Source of the DNA: Shigella phage Sf6
Direction: 5' to 3' (one strand)
Sequence record: AF547987
DNA: 39,043 nucleotides
A program made the position numbers and the translations under genes. The stretch's first letter is position 1; the number at the start of each line of letters is the position of its first letter. Under the pieces are notes generated by a model. It worked only from the letters and a program-made list of their open reading frames with translations, made no database searches and was not told the DNA's origin. Of the stretch, positions 26,469 through 36,220 are shown piece after piece.

Positions 26469-26472
<4 letters not shown>
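26068..26472 (-). CDS. exported protein of unknown function, downstream of cI
   Basis: Start at ATG 26472 overlapping the cI stop (ATGA); N-terminal signal-peptide-like segment MIRIAALLSILLTTSANS; track ORF extends upstream in overlap with cI. Confidence 0.55.
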
Positions 26473-27419
<947 letters not shown>

Positions 27420-27538: not shown

Positions 27539-27817
27539 ATGCAACTTACAAGTACTCGCAAGAAAGCGAATGCAATTACAAGCAACATCCTGAATCGAAT
27601 TGCTGTACGTGGTCAGCGAAAGGTTGCCGACGCGTTAGGGGTTAATGAATCGCAAATTTCGCGATGGAAAGACAGCTTCATCCCAAAAATGGGAATGCTT
27701 CTGGCTGTTCTTGAATGGGGTGTTGAAGACGAGGAGTTGGCGGAACTGGCTAAGAAAGTAGCCAGAATGCTGACAAAAGAAAAAGCCCCGAAGAACGGCG
27801 AATTCTTCGAGGCCTAA
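27539..27817 (+). CDS. cII: transcriptional activator CII
   Basis: 92-aa ORF with the SQISRWK...IPK..MLLAVLEWGV signature of lambda CII; AAGGAAAT RBS. Confidence 0.85.
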   Translation: MQLTSTRKKANAITSNILNRIAVRGQRKVADALGVNESQISRWKDSFIPKMGMLLAVLEWGVEDEELAELAKKVARMLTKEKAPKNGEFFEA

Positions 27818-27851: not shown

Positions 27852-28013
27852 ATGACAAAACGTCGTAAGAAATACCAGGAAAAAGAAGAGATTCGACACC
27901 CTGATTCACCTGAGGGATTAGTGGTAGCCGCAGCAAATAACAGGGCGTTCGCAGAGCGCCTTGTTGGTGTTTACAGACTAGCCAAAGCAGGAGTGAAACA
28001 TGGGCGTCGTTAA
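27852..28013 (+). CDS. hypothetical small basic protein (53 aa)
   Basis: Hand-translated ORF between cII and the replication gene with GGGAG RBS; not in the track. Confidence 0.3.
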   Translation: MTKRRKKYQEKEEIRHPDSPEGLVVAAANNRAFAERLVGVYRLAKAGVKHGRR

Positions 28014-28890
28014 GTTAGCTGATTACAGGCATAACCCTGTACAACATCAGGAGGCATCCAGTATGGGGTATGTCTCTATACACCGCCAGTTTATGGACAG
28101 CAGGCTCTATAAGGACTCTCAGGCAGTACATCTTTGGCTTCACTTAATCCTCAAGGCTAATCACGAATCTACTGTCGTCAATACGGATATCGGTCCGATA
28201 ACTGTTGATCGCGGTCAGATGATAACTGGACGCCCGTCTCTGGTCAGAGAAACATTCATCCCCGACAACAAAGTTCGGAGCTTATTACGGACTTTTGAGT
28301 CGAAAGGGATGCTTAATATTTGCTCGATGGGGAAGAAATTTAGCCTGTTTACAATCGTTAAATATGACGATTTTCAGGCAAAAAATTGTCCAACGGTTGT
28401 CCAACGTTTGTCCAACGCAAACACCAGTAATGGCGCGGCTCTCAGCGGAGATTGTCCAACGGCTGTCCAACGGTTGTCCATAAACAATAATATAAATAAT
28501 ATCTCTAATACTGACGTATTAGAGAGTGCCACAGCAGACAAAAAGTCTGACAAGAAAAAACCTTCCGTTAGCTGTCAGGATGTTGTCGATGCTTACCACG
28601 AAATCCTTCCTGAAGCGCCAAGAATCCGCGCACTGAATGACAAGCGTAAAAACCAGATCCGAACGTTCTGGCGCAAAGCCGGAGTGATAACCCGCCAGCT
28701 TGACGGGCATGGGTTCACGATGCAGGACTGGAGAAATTATTTGAGCTACGTTGGCGAAAATTGCCGATGGATGTTCGAAGAGCGCCCAAACCATCAACGC
28801 GGAACCGTCTGGCACAAAAAGGGATTTGATTTCCTGCTTAACGATAATACCTACCTGAAAGTTCGTGAGGGTGAACACGATGACCGATAA
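28000..28890 (+). CDS. replication initiator / replisome organizer (O-like)
   Basis: 296-aa ORF upstream of and overlapping the helicase gene; N-terminal replisome-organizer-like domain; contains iterons in its middle. Confidence 0.75.
   Translation: MGVVKLADYRHNPVQHQEASSMGYVSIHRQFMDSRLYKDSQAVHLWLHLILKANHESTVVNTDIGPITVDRGQMITGRPSLVRETFIPDNKVRSLLRTFESKGMLNICSMGKKFSLFTIVKYDDFQAKNCPTVVQRLSNANTSNGAALSGDCPTAVQRLSINNNINNISNTDVLESATADKKSDKKKPSVSCQDVVDAYHEILPEAPRIRALNDKRKNQIRTFWRKAGVITRQLDGHGFTMQDWRNYLSYVGENCRWMFEERPNHQRGTVWHKKGFDFLLNDNTYLKVREGEHDDR
28386..28525. repeat. origin of replication: iterons plus AT-rich region
   Basis: Six copies of TGTCCAACG (with flanking TT/GG variations) in two blocks at about 28386-28418 and 28451-28481, followed by an AT-rich stretch to about 28525. 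Confidence 0.7.
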
Positions 28891-36064: not shown

Positions 36065-36139
36065 GGGTCAGTCGTATAAAGGTCATTACGGAAGGCTGTT
36101 AACCTTCTTATCGTGGTTCGAGTCCACGCTGTCCCGCCA
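36065..36139 (+). tRNA. tRNA-Asn (anticodon GTT), with two stem mismatches
   Basis: Hand-folded cloverleaf: anticodon arm GAAGG-CTGTTAA-CCTTC, T-arm CGTGG-TTCGAGT-CCACG, 3' CCA; T:T mismatches in acceptor (4:69) and D stems. Confidence 0.55.
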
Positions 36140-36144
36140 AACAT

Positions 36145-36220
36145 GCTGGTTTAGCTCCAATGGTAGAGCAGTCGCCTTGTAAGCGAATGGGTAGCGGTTC
36201 AAGTCCGTTAACCAGCACCA
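36145..36220 (+). tRNA. tRNA-Thr (anticodon TGT)
   Basis: Hand-folded 76-nt cloverleaf: perfect 7-bp acceptor stem GCTGGTT/AACCAGC, D stem GCTC/GAGC, anticodon loop CTTGTAA, T-loop TTCAAGT, 3' ACCA. Confidence 0.7.

Follow-up and report, generated by a model that had tools for sequence, protein, structure and literature searches.

The window, by which we mean the whole stretch of 39,043 nucleotides that was analysed (Shigella phage Sf6, AF547987), is the mosaic genome of a P22-like podovirus that is ~96% identical over large parts to N7, HF4s, Gally and HK620, and its 434-type immunity region is 99% identical to that of phage 434. A replication initiator gene lies downstream of cro, cII and a small gene similar to orf48; after it comes the gene for a replicative helicase of the DnaB family, which overlaps the 3' end of the initiator gene by 11 nt. 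The same overlap is present in HK620, ST64T and P22, and a 478-aa helicase homologue is likewise called with it. The helicase matches TIGR03600 (phage_DnaB) with an E value of 1.9e-175 and 583.9 bits (curated cut-off 498.65), and is presumed to be the partner of the initiator C-domain. Upstream of cro, cII, orf48 and the initiator gene, we located a pR-like promoter, from which the predicted transcription would cross the mid-gene elements described below. The features of the locus are as follows.

27148-27176, plus strand: pR-like promoter TTGACA-17-GAAAAT, a 10/12 consensus match only

28000-28890, plus strand: replication initiator gene of 296 aa (phage L/ST64T/HK620-type gene 18), an open reading frame assigned to phrog_345

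28386-28417, plus strand: iteron block 1, three 11-bp units with 9-bp cores TGTCCAACG at 28387, 28398 and 28409

28418-28452, plus strand: inter-block spacer, richer in G+C

28453-28483, plus strand: iteron block 2, TGTCCAACG at 28453 and 28464 and a truncated TGTCCATAA at 28475

28480-28502, no strand assigned: AT-rich tract, presumed DNA-unwinding element, 22/23 positions A/T (96%)

28502-28525, no strand assigned: perfect palindrome TCTCTAATAC-TGAC-GTATTAGAGA with 10-bp arms and a 4-nt loop

28880-30316, plus strand: phage DnaB-family replicative helicase gene (P22 gene 12 type; TIGR03600, Pfam DnaB/DnaB_C)

The iterons form a direct-repeat cluster in the middle of the initiator gene (nt 388-484 of the gene), composed of five perfect copies of the 9-bp core and one truncated copy in two blocks of three. 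All five exact copies of TGTCCAACG fall inside 86 bp; a search of both strands of the 39-kb window returned no further exact copy, and the window contains no second iteron cluster. Where the window holds five exact copies of a 9-mer within 100 bp, 200 simulations of it under a first-order Markov model gave 2-3 at most. A formal repeat search, the check suggested by a sequence-only reading of this DNA, detects a clear periodicity: Tandem Repeats Finder places arrays of period 11 at 28386-28417 (2.9 copies) and 28453-28480 (2.5 copies), and the self-similarity of the region peaks at lags of 11 and 22. The six iterons in two blocks described in that reading are borne out in number and layout, but the sixth copy is truncated rather than exact. 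Since the start of block 2 lies 66 bp (6 x 11) from that of block 1, all six iterons share one 11-bp register, and a period of 11 bp moves each core into a different reading frame from the one before, so that all three are used. The encoded protein contains the peptides CPTVVQRLS (aa 130-138) and CPTAVQRLS (aa 152-160), one for each block; as 11 bp is no multiple of 3, the repeated peptide linker of the sequence-only reading recurs once per block and not once per iteron. A dyad symmetry within the iterons, GTTG-TC-CAAC, was also considered and rejected as a feature, as it needs a variable 2-nt spacer and is absent from ST64T. No DnaA box (TTWTNCACA) occurs anywhere in the window, and there is thus no sign of a direct DnaA requirement.

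For comparison, we assembled five diverged homologues from phages and 33 usable loci from prophages of species-representative genomes, spanning 36-95% protein identity; the figures on layout and co-variation rest on the 36 analysable homologues. These 36 share a single layout: two sets of three iterons separated by a spacer of ~33 bp, then an AT-rich tract, then a perfect palindrome whose arms are 9-11 bp long. Counted from the codon that opens the conserved KYD[DE][FY]Q motif, the CC cores lie at +30, +41, +52, (+63), +96, +107 and +118, the exceptions being L106 and L107, in which an insertion of ~27 nt shifts the offsets from this anchor. In some lineages, the inter-block spacer holds a degenerate fourth iteron slot. 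The core sequence itself is lineage-specific, with at least seven types (TGTCCAACG, TTACCAGCA, TGTCCAGCC, AATCCAAAG, GTGCCAACA, TTACCAAC and GGCCAACGA) of the general form NNNCCARNN; the TGTCCAACG cores are identical in ST64T, ST160 and L089-L092, and those of block 1 do not vary among the TGTCCAACG-type homologues. Iteron type follows the N-domain of the initiator (partial Mantel r of 0.60 against N-domain distance with the C-domain controlled for, versus -0.06 against C-domain distance), a correlation that is partly due to linkage, because the iterons and the N-domain coding sequence are physically adjacent on the DNA. At an N-domain identity to the window of >= 71%, the core is always TGTCCAACG, and at <= 58% it is always another.

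The AT-rich segment that the sequence-only reading had placed after the iterons is confirmed at 28480-28502, and the 40-nt interval 28480-28519 has the lowest GC content of the region (0.175). An AT-rich tract is present in all homologues, with a minimum 30-nt GC of 0.10-0.20, and it diverges by 7.6% inside the TGTCCAACG-type group. The palindrome at its far edge, at 28502-28525, is absent from the sequence-only reading. As single-stranded DNA, the segment 28476-28535, which contains the palindrome, folds at -7.8 kcal/mol (z = -4.2). Among 19 distinct sequences, compensatory changes affect both sides of 10 out of 10 pairs, and pairing holds in 96.8% of cells; in 500 column shuffles, neither the observed percentage paired nor the covariation score was ever reached, and the signal collapses in slid-partner controls. 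With ~15 distinct arm sequences, position and symmetry are kept and sequence is variable, and we conclude that the palindrome is selected for symmetry, not sequence. Equivalent palindromes occur at the origins of two unrelated N-domain types, lambda O/P22 gp18 and G38P-like. Palindrome distance tracks the C-domain of the initiator (partial r of 0.45, versus 0.07 for the N-domain), a co-variation for which physical adjacency may be a confounder.

The palindrome could also be read as an intrinsic terminator or RNA hairpin, which together with the T-rich run on the minus strand would serve leftward (antisense) transcription. In a consensus scan, the minus strand at 28525-28502 does score as a weak terminator-like site, its stem having 10 pairs and its tail reading TATTATTTAT, and the minus strands of lambda and P22 are also T-rich after their palindromes. 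However, the stem contains only three G-C pairs and its T run is interrupted, and a scan of the window with Rfam returned two tRNAs only, with no match within the origin or at the palindrome. Moreover, the inner nine pairs are strictly Watson-Crick, without a single G.U pair across the 19 distinct sequences, so that a constraint on duplex DNA fits better than an RNA hairpin formed by one strand. A terminator at this site is therefore unlikely, and it would concern the palindrome only, leaving the reading of the iterons as part of an origin unaffected.

The initiator matches phrog_345 ('replication initiation O-like') with an E value of 5.9e-85 and consists of an N-domain (aa ~20-127), a linker (aa ~122-190) and a C-domain (aa ~182-291). 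HK633 has an identical protein (100%), named 'replication protein O', and the counterparts in HK75, HK106 and HK542 are 99% identical to that of the window; the DNA of the region is ~99% identical to mEp506, mEp234 and IME10. The N-domain of lambda O belongs to Pfam Phage_rep_O (PF04492), whereas the initiator lies outside this family, with no match even at E <= 1; the positive cases, lambda O and P22 gp18, score 5.7e-36 and 6.9e-38, and BLASTP of the initiator against lambda O found nothing. In BLASTP, the N-domain (aa 20-127) aligns with the origin-binding domain of SPP1 G38P (E 7e-13, 28% identity), and it also matches PHROG 'DnaD-like helicase loader' families (E 4.4e-24 and 8.2e-16). The C-domain is distantly related to that of P22 gp18, with a weak but collinear BLASTP match (E 2e-4, 25% identity, aa 182-291) and no similarity between the N-domains; the figure agrees with the 25% identity given for the gp18 proteins of L and P22 (PMC8022706). 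With tblastn, matches to the initiator were also found in Staphylococcus, Bacillus and Vibrio phage proteins. Judged by these sequence similarities, the initiator is a chimera of G38P-like and P22 gp18-like parts and no homologue of lambda O, and 'replication protein O' is a functional label for it, not a statement of homology. The 'O-like' gene of the sequence-only reading is thus apt as to position and inferred role, but the lambda-O homology that the term implies does not hold.

An AlphaFold2 model built from a shallow alignment renders aa 122-190 as coil (pLDDT about 21-25) and the C-domain at about 80-90, with the N-domain poorly modelled at 30-55. All residues encoded by the origin segment fall inside this coil, and on this model the origin is predicted to sit in the linker-coding part of the initiator gene. 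The word 'linker' in the sequence-only reading is consistent with the coil at aa 122-190, to be read with the shallow alignment and the poor modelling of the N-domain in mind. A PDB sequence search with the initiator family profile gave no match at E <= 1, and a Foldseek search of the model against the PDB gave nothing significant (best E 0.23); its weak matches are mostly to winged-helix proteins and carry no conclusion, because the N-domain model is of low confidence. Family homology to G38P and DnaD-like proteins is what suggests a winged-helix DNA-binding fold for the N-domain.

Among known origins, the closest are those of phages L and ST64T, which have the same 11-bp iteron, and the window has six copies as 3 + 3. 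Gene 18 of phage L contains six imprecise 11-bp repeats, TGTCCAACGGA, that have been named as the likely origin (PMC8022706). The initiator belongs to the same family as the proteins of phage L, ST64T and ST160 and the 'O' gene of HK620 and HK022, at 66-83% identity. HK620 and HK022 carry TTACCAGCA cores and an N-domain that is 47% identical to that of the window, together with a C-domain that is 98% identical and the same palindrome; the rep_origin feature in the HK620 GenBank record covers exactly the two homologous iteron blocks. Nothing essential distinguishes the origin of the window from this phage L/ST64T/HK620 type.

The comparison with the lambda and P22 origins, also proposed in the sequence-only reading, reveals the same order of elements, iterons followed by an AT tract and a palindrome. 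As in the window, the lambda origin lies mid-gene between the two domains of the initiator, and its palindrome likewise has a 4-nt loop; it is transcribed from pR, as is predicted for the window; in the lambda record, four iterons at 39034-39118 precede the AT-rich tract and a palindrome with 12-nt arms. Unlike those of the window, the four lambda iterons are 18 bp long and spaced at 20-24 bp, and binding by O has been shown by experiment. Origin specificity in lambda resides in the N-domain and its iterons (PMC8022706). In lambda, the P loader captures host DnaB, whereas Sf6 encodes its own DnaB-type helicase. P22 shares with the window a two-gene module of initiator and phage DnaB-type helicase (gene 12), and the rep_origin of its gene 18, again mid-gene, contains iterons, an AT tract and the palindrome CCCCCT-AA-AGGGGG, although the repeats of P22 proper are four different ones of ~20 bp (PMC8022706).

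SPP1 offers a third parallel, in that gene 38, like the initiator gene of the window, has repeats and then an AT-rich unwinding element after the same motif at the end of the N-domain. G38P binds the repeats in its own gene beside the AT-rich element, and oriL replication has been reconstituted in vitro (PMC5737612). The SPP1 oriL differs from the origin of the window in the sequence and spacing of its repeats, the C-domain of G38P is of another type (Phg_2220_C), the SPP1 helicase G40P needs a separate loader, G39P, and we found no perfect palindrome in gene 38. In the iteron plasmids pSC101, R6K, P1 and F, helically phased short direct repeats lie by an AT-rich element and are bound by the plasmid's own initiator. 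Unlike the iterons of the window, those of plasmids are usually 17-22 bp long, lie outside the rep gene and are recognized by RepA-type proteins, and the replicons often need DnaA boxes, of which the window has none.

Very probably, 28386-28525 is the origin from which this P22-like lambdoid phage carries out vegetative (theta-type) replication. The central proposal of the sequence-only reading, an iteron-type origin within the initiator gene, is supported by the fixed-offset layout, the selection on the cores (see below), the co-variation with the N-domain, the order of elements in common with lambda, P22 and SPP1, the HK620 annotation and the phage L study (PMC8022706). We found no experiments on the L/ST64T/HK620-type origin (cloning, footprinting or replication-bubble mapping) in the searchable literature, and its origin function therefore rests on inference. 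The repeats and their register are shown directly, as are the homologies, the co-variation and the pattern of conservation; initiator binding, melting, helicase recruitment and a role for the palindrome are inferred. The feature and its interpretation are already known from the phage L paper and the HK620 GenBank annotation; what is mildly new is limited to the putative role of the palindrome, with its covarying arms, and to the copy-number series of iteron blocks.

As a plausible mechanism, the N-domain of the initiator, related to G38P, would bind the 9-bp cores, most likely with one protomer per direct repeat. Because the cores share one 11-bp register, they lie on roughly the same face of the helix, so that cooperative assembly is possible, and the bound protomers could thus build up a cooperative nucleoprotein complex. 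This complex, together with supercoiling and probably, as in lambda, transcription from pR, by which the origin may be activated, would melt the AT-rich tract. The C-domain, related to P22 gp18, would then recruit the phage DnaB-type helicase with no need for a loader of the lambda P type, and host primase and polymerase would follow. On the distal side of the AT tract, the palindrome probably serves as a structural element of the unwound DNA, for example a hairpin or cruciform that would stabilize the opening or mark the site of helicase entry. A bolder version makes the palindrome a structure-specific but sequence-independent signal for helicase entry or priming; independently of this, the number of 66-bp blocks (3, 6 or 9 iterons) might act as a natural dial of origin strength. 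We regard these tentative ideas as rather doubtful.

Alternatively, the repeats might bind the initiator or another protein for regulation only, in autoregulation, handcuffing copy control or exclusion of related phages, with the origin located elsewhere. Plasmid iterons, which have roles in both initiation and control, provide a precedent. Extra copies of the lambda origin inhibit lambda-type phages (PMC3349717; PMC4488673). However, a conserved AT-rich tract and palindrome directly follow the repeats, as at the lambda, P22 and SPP1 origins (for the palindrome, lambda and P22), the lone iteron cluster of the window is the one inside the initiator gene, and regulatory and origin roles are in any case compatible. 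A purely regulatory function is therefore distinctly improbable.

The pattern of divergence among the homologues bears on whether the repeats act as DNA at all. Within the TGTCCAACG group, the cores diverge by 1.4%, compared with 50% for the 2-nt inter-iteron spacers, 20% for the inter-block spacer and 22.7% for the N-domain coding DNA (8.1% at second codon positions). Read from the sequence alignment, the 9-bp cores are under purifying selection at the DNA level in all three reading frames. The segment is translated, encodes CPT[VA]VQRLS twice and is predicted to be coil, as would be expected if the repeats were selected as a flexible linker peptide without any role as DNA. Repetition at the peptide level would require a period divisible by 3, but the period is 11 bp and the cores run through three frames; the 2-nt spacers, which diverge while the cores do not, change the encoded amino acids (V/D/N/G, L/M); and the linker peptides are wholly different between lineages in which the DNA register is kept. 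This leaves selection on the peptide very improbable. Core conservation combined with the non-triplet period rules out both a protein-level repeat and neutral slippage, and the idea that the repeats are a recent, functionless product of slippage or duplication, for which the variation in block number by unequal recombination (1, 2 or 3 blocks) might be cited, has next to no chance of being correct and is effectively refuted by the comparative data, given that the same architecture is still found at 36% protein identity, with cores specific to each lineage, and that the cores are far more conserved than their surroundings.

As the window and HK620 have a common palindrome and C-domain but different iterons and N-domain, the joint between their shared and unshared parts must fall in the AT-rich tract, and this tract is the recombination joint between an iteron/N-domain side and a palindrome/C-domain side. 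Partial matches in E. coli genomes begin exactly at 28480, at the end of the last iteron. The locus thus provides a clear example of origin specificity and helicase partnership being shuffled as separate modules, with the joint inside the origin, and it marks where and how a common family of P22-like and lambdoid prophages starts DNA copying: of 5,426 complete E. coli genomes, 141 carry the origin segment in full. Shiga-toxin phages such as VT2-Sakai encode close relatives of the initiator, and in these phages effective production of the toxin is reported to require phage replication (PMC7466680).

In a plasmid collection, initiator homologues were found on records of phage size whose gene order is lambdoid and which contain no typed plasmid replicon. 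We considered these records as a natural origin-cloning test and rejected them as such, since in all likelihood they represent phage genomes that were assembled as extrachromosomal DNA. Proteins that share 99% identity with the initiator of the window form a series of 274 aa with 3 iterons, 296 aa with 6 iterons (as in the window) and 318 aa with 9 iterons, whose members differ by exact 66-bp units with the register kept, and natural in-frame variants of plus or minus 22 aa are thus tolerated. The two one-block examples that we inspected are in a Shigella/E. coli prophage context with an IS4-family insertion between cro and cII, and the three-block examples are in prophages of intact appearance.

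Within the origin, inside the Sf6 initiator gene, position 28480, where the last iteron gives way to the AT-rich tract, marks a recurrent mosaic recombination joint. The full origin segment is present in 141 of 5,426 E. coli genomes (372 genomes matched in all), and among the matches listed all of the partial E. coli matches to the origin start at exactly 28480. On one side of the joint are the N-domain and its iterons, on the other the AT tract, the palindrome and the C-domain.

The iteron blocks also vary in copy number, as monitored in homologous initiator loci from other genomes:

L127/L128, 3001-3957, and L129/L130, 3001-3825: iteron-block variants, compared with 28386-28483 of the window

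Natural variants carry 3, 6 or 9 iterons, giving proteins of 274, 296 and 318 aa, and their lengths step by exact 66-bp (22-codon) units with the register kept. The one-block copies inspected come from a prophage in which cro and cII are separated by an inserted IS4-family transposase. As a side observation, initiator genes of enterobacterial type occur under the labels of unrelated phyla, namely L090 (Chryseobacterium sp.), L120 (Catenulispora) and L124 (Xanthomonas pisi). The L090 copy has 86% identity and identical iterons and lies on a 799-kb contig, and the contigs of L120 and L124 measure ~500 bp or less; all three probably reflect contamination or mislabelling.

On the minus strand, signals were found near both cII and the origin:

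27783-27815, minus strand: strong terminator-like hairpin with a 14-pair stem and, after it, TTTCTTTTGT
28385-28414 and 28451-28480, minus strand: weak sigma-70-like promoter score, one per iteron block (TGGACA-18-GACAAT, 9/12)

The hairpin lies opposite the end of cII (3' end, antisense), the same position that is occupied by the oop RNA terminator in lambda and P22; oop features are present in the P22 record. Around the iteron blocks, the count of sigma-70-like promoters is not above that in shuffles, and the scores of the blocks most likely just follow from the sequence of the repeats.

In the 434-type immunity region, the cI repressor gene (26469-27100, minus strand) is broken near 26705-26716, which leaves one ORF of 131 aa and another of 70 aa. 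The minus strand reads ACC TCC CTG TAG there, whereas intact 434 cI would presumably read TCC CCT GTA GGT; the difference points to a putative 1-nt deletion within a C run. The split reflects a clear-plaque mutant or else an error in sequencing. In the record of HK633, too, the copy of this gene is labelled 'truncated prophage repressor'.

Two adjacent tRNA genes sit in the phage late-regulatory/lysis region:

36065-36139, plus strand: tRNA Asn(GTT)
36145-36220, plus strand: tRNA Thr(TGT)
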